A DNA stretch of 49,053 nt, from the NCBI GenBank assembly GCA_030167865.1, contig JALAGF010003320.1:1-49053 (forward strand), in the 5' to 3' direction. Below the pieces are notes generated by a model, which saw nothing but the letters and a program-made list of their open reading frames with translations, was not told where the DNA came from and made no database searches. A program made the position numbers and the translations under genes. Below are positions 23-41,006 of the stretch, in pieces (positions within the stretch are counted from its first letter, which is position 1; each line of letters starts with the position of its first letter). The DNA is from Craspedostauros australis. Taxonomy: Eukaryota.

Positions 23-1239
23 CACGTCTCCGGAACGATCGGAGCGTCCGACAACAACGTGGGAGTCATCGGCGTGGCACCCGAAGCCAAGATCTTCACC
101 GTCCGTGTCTTCAACGATCAAGGGATCTTCAGCTCCGACTTGATGAAGGCGGCAGCGCAGTGTGTCGACGGAGGCGCCGATATCATCAGCATGAGTTTGG
201 GAGGAGGAGGCTCCAGCAGTAGAGAGCGCGCCTTCTTCGAGCAGCTGTACAGCCAGGGCATCCTGTCCGTGGCAGCCTCTGGCAACTCCGGAGGAACGAC
301 CAACGCCGTCAACTACCCAGCAGCGTACGATATCGTCGTGAGCGTGGCAGCGGTGGATTCTTCCAAGAACTTGGCTAGCTTCTCCACTCGCAACAACCGT
401 GTGGATCTCGCTGCGCCAGGAGTCGACGTGCGCAGCACCTGGAACAACGGACGTTACGCCACGATCAGTGGAACGAGCATGGTAAGTGTGAAGACACGCA
501 GATGCTGTTTACTGTGGTTGGACCATGCAGAGCCAGTCGCCAATCATACATACTGTATTTCATTATGTGATCGAATACCAATGACTGTCATTGCCAACAA
601 TCATCTAACCATGCCTGCTACTACAATCCCACACTTGCTCTTCTCCACACCATTCATATTCACTCTCGATCGCAACAGGCATGCCCACATGTGAGCGGAG
701 TGGCAGCACTGCTCAGAAGCTACGACAAGAATCTGACCACCGCAGAACTCTTCACCGCCCTCACATCCACAGCCGAAGATCGTGGACCCAGTGGCAAGGA
801 CAGCAGCTTCGGTCATGGTATCGTCGATGCGTTGGCCGCCATCGAATCTCTGGGCGACAGCAGCGGCGGCGATAACAGCGATGAAAACGGTGGCGGCGGT
901 GACAACAGCGGTAACGACGGTGCCGACGATCTCCCATGCCTCGAAATTCGCGTCGACATCCGCTTGGACCTATTCCCAGGAGACATCAGCCACTCCTTGC
1001 GCAATCTGGCAACCGGAGAGGAAGTGTGGAAGGAGGATAGCTACCGCCCCTTCGAACGCGATACCCAGACCGTGTGCGTCGATCGCCTATCGTGCTGGCG
1101 TTACGAGATCGTGGACAGCTACGGCGATGGATTGCTCGGCTACGGCGGTATCGCCTTGAGCGAGGATGGTGAGGTGCTGTACCGCGGCGGTAACTTCGGC
1201 ACTGGCGGGTACCGCGATTTCGGACTGGGCTGTGAGTAA
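23..1239 (+). CDS. Subtilisin-like serine protease (peptidase S8), 5'-partial; exons 23-481 and 679-1239; acidic Gly linker and a C-terminal Cys/DxYGDG module
   Basis: The frame reads HVSGTIGASDNNVGVIGVAP after a CAG acceptor at 20-22, then ISMSLGG, AASGNSG and DLAAPG. The catalytic Ser motif GTSM|ACPHVSG is rebuilt across a GTAAGT...CAG intron at 482-678. Confidence 0.93.
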
Positions 1240-9947: not shown

Positions 9948-12008
9948 CTACAGTTCACCTGTGTACGGATTGCCATGCGCCCAGTTGCTGGCGTTGCCGC
10001 TCTGGTGCAGGTACTTGACCGTGGAGGCCATGTTCTGCCACACCCATGGGTAGTAGGCGTACTTGACGTCGTGCTTCTTGCAGATCTCACGCACCTTGGG
10101 CGCGATGAATGGGTACCATGCCGAACTCATGCGTGGGAAGAGATGGTGCTCGACCTGGAAGTTGAGGCCGCCCGTCAGGCAGCCGGAGACGAAACCGCCG
10201 TACGTGCTGGAGGTCTCGACCTGGGCCTTGAACCAGCAGACCGGCTCGCCGTTCGTGCGGGCCTGGTAGGTTGGGTCGCGGTTGGAGTCCTCGAAGTTGT
10301 GGGACAGGGCGAAGAGGATGGCGAGGGTGAGGGAGGAGGCGGCGCCCATGACCATGACGTGTCCGAGAATGTTCCACGTGTATCCGCCCTGGTTGATGGC
10401 CGGAGCGATGCAGTTGGTGAAGATGTAGAGGAGTCGCAGGAAGATGGCGTACTTGCGGCTCTTCTTGACGTAGTCAGACTCCATCTTGAGACCGACGTTC
10501 TCCGCTCCGCGCTGTCTGAGATCGAAGATCTCTGGGTTGAAGACGGAGCTGAGCCAGTATGCGCCAAGGGGGAGGACATAGTAGAATGCCTGGAAGCGGT
10601 GCATGAAGGTACGCTTGCTGTGGCCTGGCTCATAGTCATTGAAGAGGATGAATGGTTCGGCACCGAAGGCATCTGGGTCCTTCTCGTGGTGGTTGGTGAA
10701 TGAATGATGCTGTTGGTTTGGAATGCAGTGATGTTTGTCATGTATCGGGAATGTGTCCGTATGCATGCATGCATGTGTGAACGACAATGTGTGAGATTGA
10801 TTGTTGCTTCAGTTGGCTTCATGTTGTGATGTCTTCTGCATCGAGCATGCATAGAGCCAGCATGTTATACCACCTTGCGCCCATCGACGTCTCCAAACAG
10901 ACAATATGCACACCATTCATGCAAAGTATCCAACTCACCGTCCAATGCTGCTCCATCCACAGCCACTTGCTGCCTCCGATAAAGTCGGCACCCAATCCCA
11001 GGACGTTGTTGACCCACGGCTTCTTGGAAGCGGCACCGTGATTGGCATCGTGCTGCACGTTGAGACCGATGAAGGCCTGGCTGATGCCGTAGACGATGGC
11101 AAGTGCGTAGGTGGTGGGCGTGGTGACCCAGAGATACTGCAGGAAGGCGAACAATCCAATGAAGAAGAAGCAGCGGCTGAACCATCCCAGGGTGCCGAAT
11201 TCCTGCCCGCGTCGCACAATTTTGAAGACTTCTCTTTTGATCTCGCGCTCGAATTCGGTGTCGAACTTGTATCTGCGGGTTTGTTTGTTGGCGTCGCGGA
11301 TTTGAAAGAAGAGGAGCGGAATGGGAATGAAACGTAGTGGGACGAAAAGGATGGATGAGTTGTCGCTGGTGCGATTGGAATCATTTGTTGGCGTTGGAAG
11401 ACCATGAAGGCAATCGGACTGGTATCGCCCATGTGTACATCTCCCCATCAGAATTGACCAAGGCCCACACTATCAAATCTCAATCACAGCATGGACCACC
11501 TCGAAATGATGGGTACAAATGCTTGACGGACGGAATGACCGAGCGCAATCTTGTCTGCACAACCATCAGCATCCAAAAGGACTCCACTTCGCTCCTCTCT
11601 GCTCTTCTCTTTCTCTTCCTTGTTTCATGCATGCATGTGTGGAGTGGAGCACCCTTGAATGAAAGGCAACAGCCAAAGTAGCAGCCAACCAATTGAATGA
11701 GGAACTCACTCCGTCGTGTAATCGATGAGCTTGCCCACGCGCTGCATCTTCTCCAGATGCTTGGAGGTGTGGTACGGATGCACCATCTTGTACTGCACGG
11801 TGACATCATTGCCTCCGAACAAATGCACGGATTCACCGCCTGGATGGTCGAAGTCGGTGAGGTCGTAGATGATGCCATCGATGGCAACCTCATGACTCTT
11901 CAGTGCTTCCACGGTCGCGAGACGCTCGCTTTGAGTGGACTGCGTGGCATTCTCACTGACGACGCCGGCCGCCTTGCGCTGCCTCAGTTTGTCTGCGTCC
12001 GGGGCCAT
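9948..12008 (-). CDS. Front-end delta-5 fatty acid desaturase (cytochrome b5 fusion); exons 12008-11710, 11272-10939 and 10709-9948
   Basis: HPGG cytochrome b5 motif and His boxes HDANH, QHWT|HH and QVEHHLFP. Two GTGAGT...CAG introns (11273-11709, 10710-10938) keep the frame. The start MAPDADKLRQR matches my recollection of the P. tricornutum delta-5 desaturase. Confidence 0.95.
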
Positions 12009-22454: not shown

Positions 22455-22906
22455 AGCACAAACACAATGTTCTTCGAACAGCTGCGAATGCGAAGGGCCA
22501 TATCTCTTGCAGTCATTGTGAAGGAAACGGACTAGTTTGGAATTCGCACGCCACTTTCGTGAACATTGATCTTGACCTCTGTGGCCCATTATGACTCTTG
22601 GTTCTCAAAATCGGTGTCATCCATGTCGCTCACACGAAGATCAGTCGTCCCTCGAAATTTGTGAGAAAGCGCTGTCTTTCAACATCACACATCACTCGCG
22701 CGACACTGGACAATAACATCGCCGCCAACACCACCATTTTTCCAATAGCATGGAAAGGTGACCATAAACATTGAGCTCTTGCCGCATCATCCAGCCTTGC
22801 CCCATGGAGAGACTGATGCTTTCTTCGACTCCACTCCACAGCACCCGCGAGCACATACTACCACACCTCCGAAACGCAACCAACCCCCACATCACCAACC
22901 ACGCAA

Positions 22907-25900
22907 ATGAACGCTAACAAGACCATGGCCAACTCTGCCGCAAGCTACATCTCGCAGCCCTCATCAACGGAACGAACGGCCGTCACCTTCACATCGGGGA
23001 ATGACTTCTACGATGATGGATACAACGAGAGAGAGCTAAACGCAGATATCCATGCTGAGCTCGACTTTCGCAACGTAGAGTTCTTCGGTCGTTCCCATGA
23101 ACTTCAGCAGCTGAAGGACGCATTCGACGGCATCGTGCGACGATCGCCAAGGCGCGACAAGGGACGGCGAAGGCAAAAGCAAGCGCGCCAGAGTCAGGAG
23201 CATCACAGGAATAGTCAGGAATCATCTGACAGTGATGGGCGCAAAGCCGATCCTAGCGATGGCGTTGTTCCCTTACCTTCCGAGCAAGTTCCGACCATCC
23301 AAACCCAGAGTCCAAATGGCATTGCGAGGTTGCCTGCCGTCTTCCTGTGGGGACTCAGCGGAACGGGAAAGTCGAGACTCGTCGAGCAGTTTGCGGCTTC
23401 TCTTGGTGTTGGTGCCAATCATGGCAACAGCAACAACGTTAGAAAGGATGACGCTGGCACCGGCAATCAACAACCCTCCGAGCAGACGACATCGCGTGCG
23501 CAGGAAAAGCAGCGTGCATACATCATTCGAGGCAAGAACGATGAAAGCACAGGCTCCAAAGATCCCTTCTCTGCCATCATCCAGGCTCTCGATGACTTCT
23601 GCCAGCAGGTCATCAATGGACCCAATGCGGAACGCGAACGCATGGCCAAGATCGTGATGGAGAGTCTGGGTGAAGAGGTGCAGATGATGGCGATGATGGT
23701 GCCATCTATCGTGTCCTTGGTCAACTCTGATCTATCCGCGTCACAGGCGGAGGGCGGCATCACCGGCTCCATCAAACCCACATCCGTGACACCCTCCACA
23801 CACTCGCGAAGTACGGATACTCGAAGAGACAACTTGGACCAAATGGTGGCCTCCAGTGATCGGGCCTGGAACAAGCTGCAGTACATCTTCGGGTCGTTTA
23901 TCAAGGCAATCGCAACAAGGATGCGACCAGTCATCATGTTCCTCGACGACATGCAATGGAGCTCTCAAGTCGCCTTGGATCTCCTCTCCACTCTTCTTCA
24001 AGATAAGACGTTGGGCAACTTTCTGTTGGTCGGTACCATTCGTCAAGAAATCAACCCGCACACCGACCAACCACTGGAGTTGGATTCCATGTCACCACTG
24101 GCCAACATGCTTGATAGGTTGCATGAAACCCAACATCTCTCGGAAGATCAACAGCCTCCCGAATATCCCGGGACCTGGCCCAGACCACAGACACCGAACG
24201 GCCCTCGACTGTGGACGGACATCCACCTCAGCAACATGACCCAACAAGATGTCGGGCTGTGGTTGTCGCAGCTGCTCGATAGAGAGGCGGACGAGCTGCA
24301 GCCATTGGCTGCGAAGATCCACAGCAAGACTGACGGAAACATATTCTTCATGCTCCAGCTCCTCGAAGAGCTTGAGCGATGCAATGCCATCGTGTACAGC
24401 CGCATATCCTTCCAGTGGGAGTGGCACCTCCCTGATGATGAGTCTCTGGGCAGCAACGACCTCAGTTCATCGCACCCTGCGGATCTGCAGCACCACCGAA
24501 GTACCTTCGCTGTCACGACCAATGTGATGCAGCTGATGGTGAGGAAACTCAACAACCAACCTGCGGAGCTTCGCACTGTGTTGATCATCGCATCCTACAT
24601 CCGCTTCAGCTTTGACTTCGATCTGTTGCAGTTCGTACTGACCGAAGAGAGCAAGCATCAACCCTCAACAGATGGGTTCGTGTTTGCTGCAGCGACGGCG
24701 ACGGAAATAGGCCCGACCAATGAACCGCAAGGAGAATCGCCACGATTACTGCTCCAGCACCTGGAGCATGCAGTGCTGGATGGTCTCCTCTCCAACACGG
24801 TGGGGAGCAAGACATTCCGCTTCGCACATGACCGCATTCAACAAGCTGCACTGAGCATGGTCCCATTCGGTGAAACGAGGAGCAAGCTCAAGCAAAGGAT
24901 CGGGATGCACATCTGGAGGCTGTACTGCCAACAGAACCAACTGCCACTCACGATAACGTCGGCCTCCTCATTTACATGCAGCAATGGCAACAGCCACAGC
25001 GACAGCAACAGCAGTAGAGACAGCGACAGCCGGTCACTACCAACCATCGATACCAGCCTGCTCTTCGTCGCCGCCGACCATCTCAATTGCATTCCGACCA
25101 AGGATCATGCATTCTCGCTGCGGCTCAACCTCGAAGTCGGACAGCAGGCGTTGAAGATGGCAGCGATGGCACCAGCGGCCATGTACCTACAGCTGGCCCA
25201 TAATGCATTCCGCAAGCTTCTCAATCCATGGGAGGATCAATACGATCTCTCGCTTCGCCTGCACCAGCTGCGGTCAGATGTAGAGCTGACGCTTGGGCAT
25301 TACCAGCTGGGCTACGAACTTGGTCACATGGCGCTGGAGAAGGCCAATACAACCGAGCAGAAGCTCCCGGTATACTCCTGCATGGTATCAGCGTACGCGA
25401 AAGAGGACAAGCAGGATCTGTGCGTGCAGCTGAGCAGAAGGACCATCCGTCTGCTTGCTGAATACCCGAGGCGAGCATACGCGCTGCATGCGGCCCGAGA
25501 TCTGTGGTGGCTGACATCGTACTTGAAGCGCCACAACAATGAGCAGATCCTGTCTCTTCCAGCTTTGCACGATACAAACAGGATGCTGGCGAACAAATTC
25601 ATGTTCCATCTGATTATTCGATCATTCATGGGAGCAAACCTTGTGGAATGGATGATGGCATCGATGAAGGTCGTCCGGATGTCCATTCGTCATGGTATCT
25701 GTGCTGAGGCTGCGTTGGGTTTCGTGAGTGCCGGCATGGTGCAAACTGCTCTCGGCAATCAGGCCGTCGCCACGCGCCTCGCCAACTTGGCGAGTACGAT
25801 CATCCATCGGGATTCTGACCCTTACATTCAGGCGTGGGTTGACATGATCAGCGGTGTTTTTATATACGGCTGGAATGAGCCTGCGGGGGTCATCATCGAG

Positions 25901-27052
25901 AAGTTCCATCGAGGCTTTTCTGCCTGCATGCAGCGGGGAGACTTCGAAACTGGTTTCTTCTGTTGGCAGTGCGGCAACATGGCCGCTGAATGGGAAGGAC
26001 ATCCCATGCCAGAGATGTATCGATCGTATCAATTGATGCTTGACCAGATGGCACTGTTCAAAGTGTCATCCAACATCGAGTGGTTCAAGGAGCACGCGAA
26101 GTTGCCGGCCACTCTGATTGGAAAAGAGGAGATGAATTGGGATGATATCGCTCACTTTGGCGAAGGCATCGTGAAGACGAAGGAGACTGCCTTCGTCCTC
26201 AAGGTTGGCTATTGGACACGACAGCTACTGACGACCTACTTCCAAAGGTTCGATGTTGCCAAGATTCTGTTCGAGCGCCTTGAGAAGTCTTGTTCAGACG
26301 ACCCAGCATACAACATTCAGAGCTCTCGGTTGCTGTACATTGCTCTCATGGCTGCTTCTCTCTACCGTCAAACCAAGCGCCCCAAATACAAGCGACAGCT
26401 CAAACAGGTCTACAAGAGCAGCAGGTCGGCTTGCGCCACGAAGGGTGATCGCCACGCGAGCAGGCATCTCATCATCCGCGCCGAATACATTGCAGCGACA
26501 TCAAAGCACGGCGATGACAACAAGAAAAAGAGCAAGAGCACACAGAAGAGCATCGGTGCCATCAAGGGAGCGTTCTACGATGCCATCTTCGCTTCGGACG
26601 CGGTTGGGCGCATCCACGAAGCAGGACTTGCATGCGAGCGGTTCGCTGACTACCTGATCATGATGAAGATGGAATCCGATGCCATCATCAAGCACGTCTC
26701 CCAAGCGTGTTCATACTATCATCGTTGGGGAGCCATCGCCAAGGTGGACGATCTTCGCAAACGTTATTCGCAGTACATCGATGACGAGCAGATCTGTCAG
26801 CTGATCAGGAATCACGAACAACAGCCAGGGCGCGCGGTGCTTCCGACACACCTCCAGGCAGGTAGCAATCGCATCCGGCTGAACTTTGGTGGAAGTGGGC
26901 AGAGCGTAATGGTGGGAAGCGTGGCGACGAAGACAACGTCGCCACAAACGTTTTCGATGCCGAGTAGTGGCGGTGGCAGTAGTGACGAGAACAGTCAGGT
27001 TGACGAAATGTTCGAAGATGATAACATCTCGATCTTGACGGACCATGAGTGA
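22907..27052 (+). CDS. Large STAND-class/AAA_16 P-loop ATPase with a helical C-terminal region, homologous to the core of bacterial Ser/Thr kinase-AAA-GAF-histidine kinase proteins
   Basis: FFGRSHE, Walker A GLSGTGKS, Walker B IMFLDDMQW, T-D-GNIFF, FRFAHDRIQQAA and YHRWGAIAKV in an intronless 1381-aa ORF. Confidence 0.9.
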   Translation: MNANKTMANSAASYISQPSSTERTAVTFTSGNDFYDDGYNERELNADIHAELDFRNVEFFGRSHELQQLKDAFDGIVRRSPRRDKGRRRQKQARQSQEHHRNSQESSDSDGRKADPSDGVVPLPSEQVPTIQTQSPNGIARLPAVFLWGLSGTGKSRLVEQFAASLGVGANHGNSNNVRKDDAGTGNQQPSEQTTSRAQEKQRAYIIRGKNDESTGSKDPFSAIIQALDDFCQQVINGPNAERERMAKIVMESLGEEVQMMAMMVPSIVSLVNSDLSASQAEGGITGSIKPTSVTPSTHSRSTDTRRDNLDQMVASSDRAWNKLQYIFGSFIKAIATRMRPVIMFLDDMQWSSQVALDLLSTLLQDKTLGNFLLVGTIRQEINPHTDQPLELDSMSPLANMLDRLHETQHLSEDQQPPEYPGTWPRPQTPNGPRLWTDIHLSNMTQQDVGLWLSQLLDREADELQPLAAKIHSKTDGNIFFMLQLLEELERCNAIVYSRISFQWEWHLPDDESLGSNDLSSSHPADLQHHRSTFAVTTNVMQLMVRKLNNQPAELRTVLIIASYIRFSFDFDLLQFVLTEESKHQPSTDGFVFAAATATEIGPTNEPQGESPRLLLQHLEHAVLDGLLSNTVGSKTFRFAHDRIQQAALSMVPFGETRSKLKQRIGMHIWRLYCQQNQLPLTITSASSFTCSNGNSHSDSNSSRDSDSRSLPTIDTSLLFVAADHLNCIPTKDHAFSLRLNLEVGQQALKMAAMAPAAMYLQLAHNAFRKLLNPWEDQYDLSLRLHQLRSDVELTLGHYQLGYELGHMALEKANTTEQKLPVYSCMVSAYAKEDKQDLCVQLSRRTIRLLAEYPRRAYALHAARDLWWLTSYLKRHNNEQILSLPALHDTNRMLANKFMFHLIIRSFMGANLVEWMMASMKVVRMSIRHGICAEAALGFVSAGMVQTALGNQAVATRLANLASTIIHRDSDPYIQAWVDMISGVFIYGWNEPAGVIIEKFHRGFSACMQRGDFETGFFCWQCGNMAAEWEGHPMPEMYRSYQLMLDQMALFKVSSNIEWFKEHAKLPATLIGKEEMNWDDIAHFGEGIVKTKETAFVLKVGYWTRQLLTTYFQRFDVAKILFERLEKSCSDDPAYNIQSSRLLYIALMAASLYRQTKRPKYKRQLKQVYKSSRSACATKGDRHASRHLIIRAEYIAATSKHGDDNKKKSKSTQKSIGAIKGAFYDAIFASDAVGRIHEAGLACERFADYLIMMKMESDAIIKHVSQACSYYHRWGAIAKVDDLRKRYSQYIDDEQICQLIRNHEQQPGRAVLPTHLQAGSNRIRLNFGGSGQSVMVGSVATKTTSPQTFSMPSSGGGSSDENSQVDEMFEDDNISILTDHE

Positions 27053-34624: not shown

Positions 34625-36228
34625 GTGCGCTCCACTTCACTTCACTCCACTCCGCTCTCCTCTTGTCCTTGTTCTCCTCGCTTTTGTTGTTCTGGTGGCT
34701 GCGCAAGTCAGATTTCTACCATTCTGCCGTGGTACCAATAGGGGGACGGGCGAACCTTTGAGACTTGGCGAGCCAAGTCGTTGCATTGTCGCTACTGTCG
34801 CCACTGCCACCATGGTGAAGCTTCGATGATGGTGGTTGCTCTACATTGAGAAATCGATAGGGTTGTTCAGCAAAGTAGACGAGCAGGGATCATTATGTAT
34901 TGTATGGTCGTGGAGTACAGAACATGGAAGCGCTGCATCACGTTCCTTCCATCCACGTCAAACATCAGCGGTGGAGGTGGAAGCCAGAGAAGACTTGTAG
35001 TGTGTTCTTGTTTGCAATGAATACTCCTCGTTTGCCTTGTGGTATCGTACAAACAGTTGAAGTCGATTTCAACTTTTCATCTAGGGTGAGTGCACGCAAC
35101 ATCACCTTCCTGTCTGCTTTGTATTACCATGCATTACTCTTACCCTACGCTGCTTCGTGCGTGAAGCTTCCATTTCTCATGACACTTCGCATCATGACAC
35201 CAGAGCTTCCTTTGGCAGTGGGAGGACATTCACAATGGTACAAGTACTGTATGCGGTAGCATGTCAGCCAGCAATGCATAGTACTATACGCATGTCTGCA
35301 CGAGTATCCTTGTCGTCACCTCCTCAGGTGATGATACCCCCAAGAAGCGAACTGTTCTTGCAGACATGTCACCCTTTCAAGTGATGACCCAAAAACTACG
35401 CGAAGCCCATTGCACGAAGAAGCGGAAATGGATGGAGGCGTCACCTTTTCAAGTGATTAAGGAGGCTGCCACGCACTACTACACGAGCTATGTGGAGGCA
35501 TGGCCGGATTTGGTGAACGGAAAGGCCAAGAAATCAGACCTTTGCGAAGAAGACTACTTCTCGTGTCGGGAAATGCGAGCCATGATACAACTCCTGATGC
35601 GAAAGTGCACGTGGTAATCTGCAAGAGGCGGAAGACACATTGATATCACCCATCTCTGCAGTAGCTCGTATCGTCTCGTAGCATGCTACGAGTAGTCGTA
35701 TGCGTGCCAACCAATCCGATTGCTTCTCCAGCGGAGTATTCGCACCTTCAGGAAGTAACGCATGAACGAGGAATTCCTACAGGAACGTCACGCATAGTCG
35801 TATGGTATGGTACGACTACGCACGTCGACGTACACGCTCGTACGCCAAGACTCCGCGCATCTGGTATGGCGGCTGCATTCGTTAAAAATGTCGAGGATGT
35901 GTCTCCCTCCGATGCAGTATGGCAGCTACTGGCAGCTACGAAGATGCATACATGTATGCTCGTAGGTTGTCAACCTACATACTCATGCATGCCCATGCAC
36001 GCCTCATTGTTCAATGGCACAAGCTATGGCGCAATTGACGCGGTGCCAACGCAACCTTCGCCTCGTGTGATCTCTCGTTGGCATAGCTCGCACCAATGCA
36101 CGAATTCACCTCTCCGTTTGCAAATGACCAACGCAACGCCACATTGATCTCAACTTGCGAAGACACTCCTCTCACAAATCCAATCTCCGGCAAAGAATAA
36201 TCAAGCTCGCACTTCCGCTAACGTGACA

Positions 36229-37941
36229 ATGATGAAGTTGACTCAAGCCGCCCTCTGTGTGCTGTCCATGACAGCACTCGCATCTGTCGATGCCCAACAA
36301 TCCCACCAACAACAGCACGGCATTCCCAGCTTCACCCAAGCTGCTGCCGACAAGGCCGCCACCGATGACGAGGAGTCCCTGCGCGGACGCAATCGCAAGC
36401 TGCAGGGAGGACCACCGCCGATCTCCCCACAGATCGGGAGCCTGGGGGCCTTGATCCCCATCCTCGACAAGGAGATCGCCACTCATGAAACGCCAATCGC
36501 TGTTCGACTCACCTCCTTCTACTCTGCACTGTTCTGGAACTGCATCGCCGCATTCTCCACCGACCACAAGGACATGCTCACCAGCGAGCGCCCCGTGATC
36601 ATCGTGCCCGATACCGCTGCCCACACCGATGACAACCGCTTCAAGTGTGCCGCGCAAACCACCATCTCCTACAGCTCCCTCACGGCCCCTGGCCCCGTCG
36701 AGGAGCTGGCTGCGTCGCTCGCCGCGACCGGCATGGTTCTCGAGAAGTCCCTTCCAGCTGAAGTTGCAGCGTGCGCCACTAACGATGTCGGCTGCCTCAA
36801 GGAGATCGCCGCTGACAGCAACTACGATGCCGCCATGATGGGACACGTCCTGTCCAGGCTCGCATACGACTTCTCCCTCTCCGACGGATGGAATGAGCTC
36901 GGCATGGATGACGGCTGCGTCGTCAACTGCCGCCGGTTCCGAGATACCACAGGCTATGCCCCCGTCACCCGTTCGATGAGCACCGCCGACCCCGCTTCTA
37001 GCAAGTCCTCCAAGAGCAGCAAGAGCACCCCGGGAGATCCCAACCAAGAGCGCTGGCAGCCACTCACGGAAGACAACGGCAAGGGATTCTTCGTCATGCA
37101 GGAGCACGTCACGCCGCACATCGGGCAGAAGGCCAAGTTCCGTTTCCTCCCCGAATCTGACCGCACCGAGCGCAACGCCCCCGAGCCAACCTACTCCCTC
37201 AACCGCTACGTTGAAGCCTTCGAAGTCATCGAGCGCATGGCCGCGCTGGATGATCGCAGCAAGATCGAGGTCGAAGTCTTCGATAACAAGCAGCTGATCG
37301 GCGGCACCGTCCTGAACAACTTCATCGGCAAGTTGCTATCCTCGCCAGACTTCGTCGACACCGAACTTGGCATCGACGGATTGGTGATCTCGTACGAGCG
37401 ATTCGTTCATTTCGCGACCGGATTCGTCGTGGCTGAGTTCGACGCCGTCGTCATCGCATGGAAGGAGAAGGTCAAATTCGACCTCATCCGCCCCACCACC
37501 CTCATCAAGCGGGCAGACTTCCCACAGGAGATGATCACCACCTGGTACGCCGGAGTGGGCAACGGTCCTCTCATGCCCTTCCGCAACGACGACTTCGAGG
37601 CCTACATCCGTGTCATGCCTCACTCCGAATACGTCTCCGGTTCGGCCTGCATCTTCCAATCCATCGGCGAGTTCGTCGATGGGTACATGGAGAAACTTGG
37701 CCTGGCCGACCCAACCTTCCCTGTCGTCTTCGCCCCGATCGACACCAGCGTCGTCGAGCCAGGTCTTGTACCATCCCAGCCAGTCCAATTGAGCTACGCC
37801 ACAATGAGCGAGATGGTGCTGGCTGGTAGCCTCTCCAGATTCAACGGCGGCATGCACTTCCGCGAGTCCGTTCCAGCGGCCTTGGAATTGTGCAGCGGCA
37901 TTGGCTATGCGGACCTCGAGGGTATGTTCAACTTGATCTAA
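36229..37941 (+). CDS. Secreted vanadium-dependent haloperoxidase-like / PAP2-superfamily protein (bacterial DUF6851 type)
   Basis: Signal peptide and pro-region ending SLRGRNRKL. Motifs WKEKVKFDLIRP, MPHSEYVSGS and SRFNGGMHF, plus FRDTTGYAP and WQPLTE. Intronless. Confidence 0.85.
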   Translation: MMKLTQAALCVLSMTALASVDAQQSHQQQHGIPSFTQAAADKAATDDEESLRGRNRKLQGGPPPISPQIGSLGALIPILDKEIATHETPIAVRLTSFYSALFWNCIAAFSTDHKDMLTSERPVIIVPDTAAHTDDNRFKCAAQTTISYSSLTAPGPVEELAASLAATGMVLEKSLPAEVAACATNDVGCLKEIAADSNYDAAMMGHVLSRLAYDFSLSDGWNELGMDDGCVVNCRRFRDTTGYAPVTRSMSTADPASSKSSKSSKSTPGDPNQERWQPLTEDNGKGFFVMQEHVTPHIGQKAKFRFLPESDRTERNAPEPTYSLNRYVEAFEVIERMAALDDRSKIEVEVFDNKQLIGGTVLNNFIGKLLSSPDFVDTELGIDGLVISYERFVHFATGFVVAEFDAVVIAWKEKVKFDLIRPTTLIKRADFPQEMITTWYAGVGNGPLMPFRNDDFEAYIRVMPHSEYVSGSACIFQSIGEFVDGYMEKLGLADPTFPVVFAPIDTSVVEPGLVPSQPVQLSYATMSEMVLAGSLSRFNGGMHFRESVPAALELCSGIGYADLEGMFNLI

Positions 37942-38386
37942 GTGGACATGTTTGTGCTATCGTAAGCTACAATCAAGTGAACGACCGACCGATCAACCAA
38001 CGATGAGAGCAAAGAATGGCCTGTCAGTGGTGGCCTAGGTGGTTGGAGCGATCACACTCTTGTGCGGCCGTGGCTCTTTCCCTTCTGTCGCTAGAAAGTC
38101 AAACAAGACATGTGGCGTACAAGCGCGCTGTTAGTGAATAATATATGCATGGAGCTATGCAATAAATAAGAAAGAACAAACAAGGAGTTCATAGATACTG
38201 TTGCTACTCCTGGTAGTATTACACTTGCAACAGGTCATGATATGGTTGAACAACAACAGCAACAACGTCATCGCTACCAGGAATAGTTCAGCAGACAGTC
38301 TATCTCTCTCCCTCATTCCTTCGGTGTCTCGTCACCAATGTCGCTGCAAGTGGGTTCGCCATTGCATAGGCATATACGTACGAGAT

Positions 38387-39601
38387 TCACGTCTTGGGAA
38401 CGATGCTATCCCCGATCCAGAATCGAAGCACGTTGGGATGGTTGTGAAAATCCTTCGTGCCTGCACCAATCCCGATCTTGCGAATCGTAAAGTCTGGCGG
38501 ACGTCCCGCGATCTTGATCTTGCCATCCGGTGCACACGTCGCGACCAAGGTCTTCAACAACGCCGCACCTGTCGGCGTCACCAATTCGCCGGTCACACCG
38601 GGCGGTCCGCTGCATGTGGGCATGTCGGTCAGCAATCGCAACGTGGCAGGTGCTGGTACAGGCAGCAATCCATGATCCGTCCATACCGTGCCTTCTCCGA
38701 TCGGCAAGCGGCTGCAGGTGACTGTGGTGACGTTCCACAGCCACAATGCCAGCAAGGTGCCGACGGTGTCGACGATGGAATCCACGGCGCCAACCTCATG
38801 GAAGTGGACGGCATCCTCGGATGCCGCGCCGTGCGTCTTGGCCTCGGCTTGCGCCAGGACGGTGAAGGATGCGATCGCCTTCTCCTTGACCCATGTCGGA
38901 ATGTATTCCTCCGGAGCATCCTCCAACATCTTGCGAATCTGTGGCAAGTTTCGCAATGGACCTTTGGCGTTGCTGTGGTCGTGAGAATGGGAATGGCCAT
39001 GATCGTGCGAATGGGAGTGATCATGGTCATGTGCGTGATCGACTTTCTTTGCGCGGTCGTGGGAGTCGGTGTGGTCATGTGAATGCGAGTGGTCATGTGA
39101 ATGCGAATTATCAAGTTCCTTCTCTTTGTGCCTGTGGTCATGCGAATGAGAGTGGCCATGGCCATGGCCCTTCTCTTCTTTGTGATCATGTGAATGGTCA
39201 TGCTCCTTCACTTTGTGATCATGTTCCTTCACTTCGTGAGAATGTGAATGATCATGTTTCAATTTCTCCGTGTCGGTTTTGTGTACATGATCATGTGAGT
39301 GTTCATGCTCCGTCTCAGCCTTGTCCGCGCCTGGCACAGGCGCCGGTGCATGATGATACTGGCTATGCACTTGCACGTGCGTTGCCGCGATGCGTCCCAT
39401 GCCACGCCAAACACGCGATGTTTCAATGGAGAATTCATCCCCCAGCATGCCATGATGCAACCGATGGGCAATGTCACGCAGCAGGGCATCGGGGTCATCG
39501 GCGGCATCGAGACATGATGCCATCAACATGTCGCCGGCGGCGCCCGAGAAGCAATCCCAGTGGGCGTGGGAGGTGGATGCGGGGCGTTGCCATTGCGCCA
39601 T
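38387..39601 (-). CDS. larC: LarC-family nickel insertase (NPN cofactor biosynthesis), N-terminal domain with a long His-rich insert
   Basis: HWDCFSGAAGDML, VHFHEVGAVDSIVD, HGLLPVPAPAT, ELVTPTGAALL and GIGAGTKDF..PNVLR. His-rich tract at 38972-39310. Confidence 0.93.
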   Translation of the reverse strand: MAQWQRPASTSHAHWDCFSGAAGDMLMASCLDAADDPDALLRDIAHRLHHGMLGDEFSIETSRVWRGMGRIAATHVQVHSQYHHAPAPVPGADKAETEHEHSHDHVHKTDTEKLKHDHSHSHEVKEHDHKVKEHDHSHDHKEEKGHGHGHSHSHDHRHKEKELDNSHSHDHSHSHDHTDSHDRAKKVDHAHDHDHSHSHDHGHSHSHDHSNAKGPLRNLPQIRKMLEDAPEEYIPTWVKEKAIASFTVLAQAEAKTHGAASEDAVHFHEVGAVDSIVDTVGTLLALWLWNVTTVTCSRLPIGEGTVWTDHGLLPVPAPATLRLLTDMPTCSGPPGVTGELVTPTGAALLKTLVATCAPDGKIKIAGRPPDFTIRKIGIGAGTKDFHNHPNVLRFWIGDSIVPKT

Positions 39602-39731: not shown

Positions 39732-41006
39732 CTACTTGTCCTTGCGATTTCTCTTCGTGGGAGATTCGAGGTTCCCTTCCGATTCATCGTGGGCGCGCTT
39801 CTTCTCCTCGTCATCCTGCTCCTCGTCCATTCGCGTCGGCGAGGATCGTGGCGACGACCGCGGCGATCCCTTCTTCTCCGATGATCGCGGGCTCTTGCCT
39901 CTCGCCGTCAGGGTGGCGCAATGGCGACTGGCGATCTCGTCTTCCTCCATGAAGCGCTTGCGATCCTGCTCCTCCATGTCCATGAACTTGCTGCGATCGT
40001 CTTCGGATGCGTCCTCCCATGCCTTCATGAGGCGGGAGTTGAGGTTGGTGTTGACAAGGCACGGGTCCAGGCGGTCGTTGGGTCCAGCGCGCACGGACCG
40101 CCGCACTTCCTCCTCGGCCTTCTTGAGGAATTCATCCTTCCTGTTGCTGACGAAGAAATGGAAATCCGTGCGAATGGGTTTCACATCCTCCGGGTTGAGC
40201 TCCATCATGGCGTTGGCGCGCAGCCGTTCCACCTCCATGGAATCGGCCACGAGCTTGTTCGTAGGCGGCGTGATGCCCTGCATGCCGCCATTCACAGTGC
40301 TGGGCGATGATCGTGGCGATGCGGATTGTGCCCTGGGAGGGCTGGGATTCACGCTGGCGCTGCCCGAAGAGTCGCGTCTGCTCATCGCCTCGTTGGGTCG
40401 ATAAGGTGAGTTTGCGTTGCGAAGGTGCATGTGTCCCGGAGGTGGTTGGGATTGTGGATTCTGGGCGGATGGCGAGCCATGCGGGTAGGAGTGATCGTAT
40501 CCGTATCCATACGGAGGTAGCGGCGCCCCATGACCACCAAATCCGTACGCGGGAGGATAGGACGGTGGCGGCGGTCCCCCGTATCCGTTGCTGGTTGGGC
40601 TGGAATTATTGGATGCTCCAGGATTGGAAGGTCCCGCACTTCCGTTTCCATTGCCTCGGCTGGGTCCCGTGGGCGATCCGCCTGGTGGTGGTGCATGCGG
40701 CGCGTATGGATGATGTGGCGATGATGATGTCTGGAGAGGAATGGCACCACCGAATGCTCCGGGTTGACCATGAGCATGTGGAGGTGGGTGACCGTAACCC
40801 GGTGGAAAGTGCGGATGCCCGTGCGGATGCCCGGGAACGTATGCTGCTCCTGCCGGTGGTGGCGGTCCGCCTGGATAGCCTCCAGGACGTCGACCGGCGA
40901 AGGGTCCGCCCCATTGCGGTGCATGGGGCTCACCGGTCGGCGATCCACCTGCTCCCTGCTGTGGTGGCATTGTATTGTCTGGTGCGCTGCTCACTTCAAC
41001 AGCCAT
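39732..41006 (-). CDS. HMG-box protein with a Pro/Gly/His-rich low-complexity N-terminus
   Basis: HMG-box pattern KPIRTDFHFFV...RLMKAWEDASEDDRSKFMDMEEQDRKRFMEE, with SPR repeats. Confidence 0.82.
   Translation of the reverse strand: MAVEVSSAPDNTMPPQQGAGGSPTGEPHAPQWGGPFAGRRPGGYPGGPPPPAGAAYVPGHPHGHPHFPPGYGHPPPHAHGQPGAFGGAIPLQTSSSPHHPYAPHAPPPGGSPTGPSRGNGNGSAGPSNPGASNNSSPTSNGYGGPPPPSYPPAYGFGGHGAPLPPYGYGYDHSYPHGSPSAQNPQSQPPPGHMHLRNANSPYRPNEAMSRRDSSGSASVNPSPPRAQSASPRSSPSTVNGGMQGITPPTNKLVADSMEVERLRANAMMELNPEDVKPIRTDFHFFVSNRKDEFLKKAEEEVRRSVRAGPNDRLDPCLVNTNLNSRLMKAWEDASEDDRSKFMDMEEQDRKRFMEEDEIASRHCATLTARGKSPRSSEKKGSPRSSPRSSPTRMDEEQDDEEKKRAHDESEGNLESPTKRNRKDK

Follow-up and report, generated by a model that had tools for sequence, protein, structure and literature searches.

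What can a diatom do with only one half of LarC, the cyclometallase of nickel-pincer nucleotide (NPN) cofactor synthesis? The question is raised by a minus-strand gene at positions 38387-39601 of contig JALAGF010003320.1 from Craspedostauros australis, of which we analysed the stretch from position 1 to 49,053 (49,053 nt, hereafter the window). The gene encodes a LarC1 domain with a very large histidine-rich loop and stops before LarC2. The explanation we prefer, and hold with reasonable though not high confidence, is that it specifies the nickel-binding and nickel-inserting LarC1 half of the NPN LarC cyclometallase, the enzyme having been split into two unlinked genes in this diatom lineage.

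The open reading frame (ORF) runs without interruption from an ATG at 39601 to a TGA at 38387-38389 and encodes 404 residues. Its N-terminus, MAQWQRPASTSHAHWDCFSG, lines up with the starts of the homologues in the alignment. The gene and the spacer behind it comprise the following elements:

38387-39601, minus strand: complete, single-exon LarC1-only coding sequence of 404 codons plus TGA (ORF list, translation, Pfam, NCBIfam).
39323-39601, minus strand: residues 1-93, the first part of the LarC1 fold, including the DCFSGAAGDM motif (alignment, HMMER, AlphaFold2).
38972-39310, minus strand: residues 98-210, a His-rich insert whose 40 His lie in HSHDH-type repeats and which is predicted to be disordered (residue count, AlphaFold2).
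38390-38968, minus strand: C-terminal half of LarC1 (residues 212-404), with the acidic pocket and the conserved His cluster (TIGR00299.2, HMMER alignment to 12bi, conservation).
38387-38389, minus strand: TGA stop, within what is the interdomain linker of fused LarC (11 codons past PNVLR).
37942-38386, no strand: spacer of 445 bp to the convergent neighbour, without LarC2 coding potential (three-frame translation, tblastn, six-frame profile search).

Profile searches place the encoded protein in the LarC1 domain family, with scores well above the curated cutoffs. The Pfam family PF01969 (Ni_insertion, the LarC family) matched with an E-value of 8.1e-65 (219.8 bits, cutoff 22.1); its best stretch, residues 173-396, corresponds to profile positions 43-234 of 375, and the final 140 profile positions, which represent LarC2, are unmatched. 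The NCBIfam model TIGR00299.2 (nickel_LarC1) scored 179.2 bits over residues 217-395 (cutoff 90), and nickel_LarC2 gave no match to the protein in the NCBIfam scan. Judged by these profiles, the polypeptide is not a full-length LarC cyclometallase, which carries a LarC2 domain binding cytidine triphosphate (CTP) in the same chain. Its last residues, FWIGDSIVPKT, extend 11 residues beyond PNVLR, one more than the 10 codons initially counted.

The AlphaFold2 model, computed from a 20-sequence alignment, has a confidently predicted core of mixed helices and strands (predicted local distance difference test, pLDDT, mostly 85-98), with values of 77-97 over residues 1-80. In the region of residues 1-93, the HMMER alignment to PDB entry 12bi covers chain residues 22-49. 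LarC of Moorella thermoacetica (PDB 12bi-12bl) was the only solved structure matched by sequence, with an E-value of 2.4e-32 in HMMER. A Foldseek search with the AlphaFold2 model gave no match at E ≤0.001 in a PDB copy that extends to April 2026 and predates the LarC cryo-EM entries.

The absence of LarC2 extends to the surroundings of the gene. As the original prediction had claimed, no LarC2-like sequence follows in any frame: the 445-bp spacer behind the stop contained no LarC2-like reading in three frames, a tblastn search of the whole window with a fused diatom LarC (P0096, from Attheya) gave matches through the LarC1 part only, and a LarC2 hidden Markov model (HMM) found nothing in the six-frame translation of the 49-kb window, where the best domain scored 1.9 bits. 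A downstream exon encoding LarC2, which would have overturned that prediction, was accordingly absent from the window by all three approaches. No Lar protein was found among the 34 large window ORFs scanned, and the locus does not have the arrangement of Lactiplantibacillus plantarum, in which larC1 and larC2 are joined by a frameshift.

To place this truncation among relatives, residues 212-404 were compared with 5.8 billion proteins; 8000 candidates were scored, 7999 of them were significant, and the best 120 were analysed. These homologues are 56-77% identical to the query in the C-terminal half, and the matches that carry an organism name are all diatoms, namely Nitzschia inconspicua, Cylindrotheca fusiformis, C. 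closterium, Pseudo-nitzschia australis, P. multiseries, Epithemia clementina, Attheya sp. and a metagenome-assembled genome of Bacillariaceae. Nearly all of them end where the window protein ends. By pattern matching, 118 stop 5-31 residues past PNxxR, and P0066, which has a variant of the motif, does likewise by eye (119/120 in all); P0096 alone runs on, for 253 further residues. In Pfam scans of 20 homologues, 19 end at profile positions 201-236 of 375 and P0096 spans positions 2-374.

Several of these homologues are transcriptome ORFs marked as complete (for example P0053, from MMETSP), and on a eukaryote-type metagenome contig, L001, the frame closes with a stop at the same place and the next 559 bp contain no LarC2. 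A missed exon is therefore very unlikely, and the LarC1-only build is, as judged from these sequences, common to the whole clade rather than a gene-model error. The original prediction had allowed that this architecture might already be described throughout stramenopiles, which would remove its novelty. The architecture is common among diatoms in the databases, but it does not extend to all stramenopiles, since the LarC of Pythium is fused.

The residues expected of an active LarC1 are retained. We mapped them by hand, combining the HMMER alignment to 12bi with the residue list in the accessible part of the M. thermoacetica LarC study (PMC13510736); the 12bi chain index equals the number used in that paper plus 18, an offset verified on the H116-x-H118-E119...D124...D128 pattern. 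All LarC1 residues given there as essential are present in the window protein, which, together with the Pfam and NCBIfam matches, bears out the LarC N-terminal motifs initially recognised. Across the clade set of 121 sequences used for all conservation figures, the equivalents of R71, E104, H108, H118, E119, D124, D128, H160, P166, E187, H226 and R231 are identical in 121/121. H116 is retained in 116/121, and D15 in 92 of the 94 sequences that cover it. The window protein has D24, R217, E253, H257, H266, H268, E269, D274, D278, H310, E339 and H388. By this alignment it possesses both the conserved His cluster (H108, H116, H118, H160, H226) and the acidic pocket (D15, E104, E119, D124, D128, E187) with the pocket residue R71.

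In the accessible text of PMC13510736, nickel insertion is proposed to take place in the LarC1 acidic pocket, E104 acting as the nucleophile. LarC2, for its part, is the domain that binds CTP and produces an intermediate activated with cytidine monophosphate (CMP); CTP binding is described as essential to LarC function. The acidic pocket residues would be required for binding of the pyridinium substrate and not for the mere holding of nickel. Their strict retention argues that the window protein may still bind the pyridinium substrate and insert nickel, as opposed to storing the metal only.

The histidine loop is the second distinctive feature of the protein. Exactly 40 of its 55 His lie within residues 98-210 (113 residues, 35% His), matching the initial description of a tract of about 113 residues with some 40 His; the same segment also holds 17 Asp, 16 Ser and 12 Lys. 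Within the DNA of the tract, segments of 18-24 nt are duplicated in tandem (two copies each) at 38979-39025, 39071-39106 and 39198-39245. The pLDDT values drop below 50 for residues 94-211, which are accordingly predicted to form a disordered loop. In 117/117 homologues with coverage here, the APAPVP motif and GPLRNLP are separated by an insert, for which the medians are 83 residues and 20 His (range 11-58 His); that of the window protein, with 123 residues and 40 His, is among the seven highest.

The insert is located at the H70/H72 site of M. thermoacetica LarC, the known histidine-rich nickel region. The expanded tract ends a few residues upstream of the H70/H72 position and could supply those ligands. 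The insert also occurs in the fused LarCs P0096, L002 and P0179, and it is therefore older than the split. Long flexible His-rich stretches are also found in UreE, HypB and SlyD, where they are thought to hold several nickel ions near the delivery site. No homology between these proteins and the window protein was detected, however, Pfam and NCBIfam giving LarC only, and the tract described here is an internal loop of an enzyme domain.

If LarC has been split, a separate LarC2 would be expected in related diatoms, and we found such proteins. The LarC2 part of the Attheya protein, used as a query among shorter proteins, gave 57 short protein matches, and the curated NCBIfam model nickel_LarC2 (NF052512.1) was used to assess candidates. 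According to Pfam, eight of 17 matches from this search are pure LarC2 (profile positions about 238-374) and nine start inside LarC1. Two proteins pass the nickel_LarC2 cutoff: P0147 (192 aa, encoded on a 64-kb contig) and P0155 (196 aa, from the genome annotation of Pseudo-nitzschia multistriata), the latter being a stand-alone LarC2 of the kind that the original prediction had proposed to look for in other diatoms. In the diatom-type stand-alone LarC2 proteins the core motifs are invariant.

Some LarC2 proteins appear to carry the trace of a former fusion. At least 60 residues precede LarC2 in 20 proteins, and in 14 of them this region matches the HMM of the LarC1 C-terminal half. Four of the 14 are N-terminally cut pieces of intact fused genes, whereas nine are degenerate: P0125 (Fragilaria crotonensis), P0128, P0133, P0123, P0126, P0167, P0158, P0135 and P0161. 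These nine lack the entire upstream half of LarC1; none of the five that cover H160 has retained it, and H226 survives in only one of the nine. Going by these losses, the nine regions are dead LarC1 remnants ahead of a live LarC2, and the remnant-bearing diatom LarC2 proteins are the apparent counterpart of the LarC1-only gene in the window. A predicted complex of the window LarC1 with the remnant-bearing LarC2 of another diatom scored 0.01 (mark 0.32), which is evidence neither way. A bacterial LarB query against protein clusters returned bacterial LarB clusters only, a result that says nothing about eukaryotes.

For a wider survey of architectures, 1.84 billion cluster representatives were searched, yielding 6921 relatives, the best 150 of which were classed by local LarC1 and LarC2 HMMs. 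These comprised 37 LarC1-only proteins with their end seen, 93 fused forms, seven cut inside LarC1 and 13 others; ranks 1-10 were all LarC1-only. The fused forms at ranks 1-69 (n = 36) have a median linker of 57.5 residues, reaching up to 210, and a median of 19 His in their richest 113-residue stretch. The corresponding medians for the fused forms of bacterial type at ranks 70-150 (n = 57) are 13 residues and 8 His. The long linkers thus belong to the fused LarCs nearest the diatom clade. The 13-residue bacterial linker is reported to be functionally sensitive, its deletion, shortening, stiffening or replacement strongly lowering bacterial LarC activity according to the accessible text of PMC13510736.

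The phylogeny that the original prediction had called for was built for both halves. In the LarC1 tree (quick IQ-TREE search, 144 LarC1 halves), the window protein falls in a clade of 45 rows with a Shimodaira-Hasegawa-like approximate likelihood ratio test (SH-aLRT) support of 93, containing 34 LarC1-only and nine fused rows. All nine fused rows lie within a 14-row subclade with Attheya, and both the rows basal to the 45-row clade and the Pythium oligandrum clade are fused. The LarC2 tree contains a diatom-type clade of 66 rows (support 90), with the same fused rows at its base; it also includes a 19-row clade (SH-aLRT 99) made up of stand-alone and remnant-bearing forms only, among them the Pseudo-nitzschia protein. 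Both trees allow for a single fission event but do not prove it.

Among 80 metagenome loci, 72 have both domains in one ORF. In the bacterial-type locus L075 (9800-11013), LarC1 and LarC2 lie in overlapping adjacent frames, as in L. plantarum, and in another bacterial-type locus, L018 (10001-10687), LarC1 occurs without LarC2 within 10 kb downstream. Other arrangements were seen among protein matches. Proteins P0186-P0189 (775-790 aa) are unusual in that one LarC1 is followed by five tandem NCBIfam LarC2 matches (552 bits over five stretches in P0186). Single-chain fusions of LarB and LarC, apparently bacterial, exist in both orders: LarB then LarC in P0190 and P0196, and LarC then LarB in P0192. 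Finally, P0184 (Pythium oligandrum, 1493 aa) combines ion-channel domains with a complete fused LarC; it could be a genuine fusion or the result of two gene models being merged.

M. thermoacetica LarC is, in the portion of PMC13510736 available, one 42-kDa chain composed of LarC1, a 13-residue linker and LarC2, with 8 His in LarC1. The window protein, by contrast, breaks off within the linker, lacks LarC2 and contains 55 His, 40 of them in the loop predicted to be disordered. The same source describes L. plantarum larC1 and larC2 as likewise separate reading frames with a His-rich LarC1 (21 His), but there the two frames are adjacent and joined by a programmed ribosomal frameshift, while the window has no LarC2 in 49 kb. 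The fused Attheya protein P0096 belongs to the same clade as the window protein, shares 70% identity with it in the LarC1 C-terminal half and has the same His-rich insert. Unlike the window protein, the fused eukaryotic LarCs (P0096, L002, P0184) have LarC2 in the same chain after a long low-complexity linker.

We propose the following course of events as the most likely. An ancestral fused eukaryotic LarC, whose linker would already have been long and floppy and whose His loop would already have been enlarged, may have been duplicated in a diatom lineage to which the Bacillariales-type taxa among the named matches belong. One copy would have lost LarC2, giving rise to the window gene, and the other would have lost LarC1 function and, in places, the remnant too, by reciprocal decay. 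In the present-day pathway, LarC2 would make the CMP-activated dithiocarboxylate intermediate, which free LarC1 would take into its acidic pocket for the insertion of Ni(II), and the 40-His loop would capture nickel and hold it for the pocket. We regard as tentative, and would not bet on, the more specific arrangement in which LarC for NPN in the diatom clade is a two-gene enzyme whose LarC1, with its 40-His antenna, acts in trans with a LarC2 hexamer docked via the dead remnant; the role of the remnant as a docking piece is speculation.

A GntE-type LarA homologue is expected to use the cofactor, because all eukaryotic LarA homologues fall in the GntE-type branch in the accessible part of PMC11770544. 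That part also reports NPN genes in unicellular eukaryotes and a Phytophthora nicotianae LarA homologue that is active with NPN; a supplementary file of the paper contains no eukaryote or diatom terms, and PMC2705460, on oomycete gene fusions, contains no Lar terms. In the transcriptome of Nitzschia laevis, a DUF111 gene is listed as a hub of a glucose-responsive module (available text of PMC8401676), which weakly suggests a connection with sugar-acid metabolism.

Several observations weigh against the two-gene explanation. The 49-kb window contains no LarC2, LarA, LarB or LarE, so the LarC2 partner is deduced from other diatoms, and although LarC1-only and LarC2-only proteins were both seen in the genus Pseudo-nitzschia, no single species demonstrably has the two. 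Some of the short "LarC2-only" entries are fragments of fused genes, such as P0122, which is 94% identical to the fused P0096. Both trees come from short searches over about 150-185 columns and have many unresolved forks. The position aligned to H72 is Asn in 118/121 clade sequences. Moreover, an untethered pair is surprising and may work poorly, given the loss of activity on changing the bacterial linker (PMC13510736, accessible text).

The alternatives have to be set against the same evidence. The original prediction had left the choice between a split LarC and a nickel store, and its first half has gained from the separate LarC2 proteins of relatives and from catalytic residues retained in 121/121 sequences, while its second half has gained no support. 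A LarC1 repurposed as a nickel store or chaperone outside NPN synthesis, for example for urease or Ni-SOD, would suit the density of His in a tract predicted to be disordered, its likeness to the His-rich tails of nickel chaperones and the lack of LarC2 in the window. However, E104, E119, D124, D128, E187 and R71, which have no obvious role in plain storage, are invariant; the insert of the fused diatom LarCs predates the split and is not tied to enzyme loss; and a matching LarC2-only lineage persists. We therefore consider a store unlikely. It is also rather improbable that LarC1 alone is a working insertase without LarC2, either because another enzyme activates the substrate or because CMP activation is dispensed with. 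The nickel site and the proposed insertion pocket are both in LarC1 (PMC13510736, accessible text), and LarC1-only ORFs exist beyond diatoms (L018, with no LarC2 over 10 kb downstream, and 13 representatives among ranks 71-150), although several short non-diatom entries may be fragments. Against such an enzyme speak the essential CTP binding of LarC2 described in the same text and the retention of a diatom-type stand-alone LarC2 with invariant core motifs.

To the two remaining explanations we give very little credence. Eukaryotic genes can have distant exons, and the LarC1-only appearance might thus be an artefact of a missed exon, misassembly or trans-splicing; but the stop is at the same position in 119/120 homologues from many assemblies and in complete transcriptome ORFs, L001 has its own in-frame stop without LarC2 behind it, and the window has no LarC2 signal, with a convergent neighbour only 445 bp away. 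Equally hard to credit is a decaying relic without function, to which the loss of LarC2 and two unusual substitutions (HAHW for HAHF and LRFW for LRLL) might point: the ORF is intact, the C-terminal half is 56-77% identical to its relatives with all functional residues kept, and the AlphaFold2 core is confident.

The window itself is eukaryotic nuclear DNA. The convergent neighbour on the plus strand, at 36223-37941, is a vanadium-chloroperoxidase-like ORF, and other window ORFs encode ankyrin repeats, an ABA4-like protein and a LETM1-like protein. A 424-residue Pro/Gly-rich protein without a Pfam match is encoded at 39732-41006 (minus strand), about 130 bp directly upstream of LarC1. A fatty-acid desaturase (9951-10808 and 10822-11469, minus strand) and a subtilase (17-691 and 571-1236, plus strand) each extend across two adjoining frames, with introns as the probable cause. 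The 1411-codon ORF at 22817-27049 (plus strand) has an AAA_16 ATPase as its only recognised domain. Two contigs from a run of uncertain kind (RNA by guess) map to the locus: one of 159 nt, identical to 38410-38568, which has no bearing on the 3' end or on expression of LarC1, and one of 396 nt on the gene upstream of LarC1, which has no bearing on expression either.

Part of this picture was known before. Work on bacteria had already established the LarC family, its His-rich region and the division of larC1 and larC2 between reading frames, NCBI holds separate LarC1 and LarC2 models, and the label "LarC family nickel insertion protein" is already attached to diatom proteins in databases. Three features appear to be new: that the split genes of a eukaryotic clade are unlinked, that the partner gene retains a dead LarC1 remnant, and that the His loop is so large. 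Our literature search, which covered sources other than subscription journals, found no description of any of the three and none of diatom LarC.

Diatoms are major marine primary producers, and the gene described here places nickel-pincer machinery among them; to our knowledge, the oomycete LarA homologue is the sole one characterised from eukaryotes so far. The dead LarC1 remnant in the LarC2 gene clearly illustrates how a gene can be split through duplication followed by reciprocal decay. The 2026 cryo-EM study in Science Advances, in its accessible text, ascribes an important part in LarC catalysis to the tether that joins LarC1 to LarC2 (PMC13510736). A natural lineage with unlinked halves offers a ready-made test of this tether model, as well as separable proteins for following the hand-over of the intermediate. 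As a candidate nickel reservoir, the very large His loop bears on the use of nickel by phytoplankton. If LarC is indeed a two-gene enzyme in these algae, NPN enzymes would add to urease and Ni-SOD a third demand for nickel in marine diatoms, one so far unrecognised.

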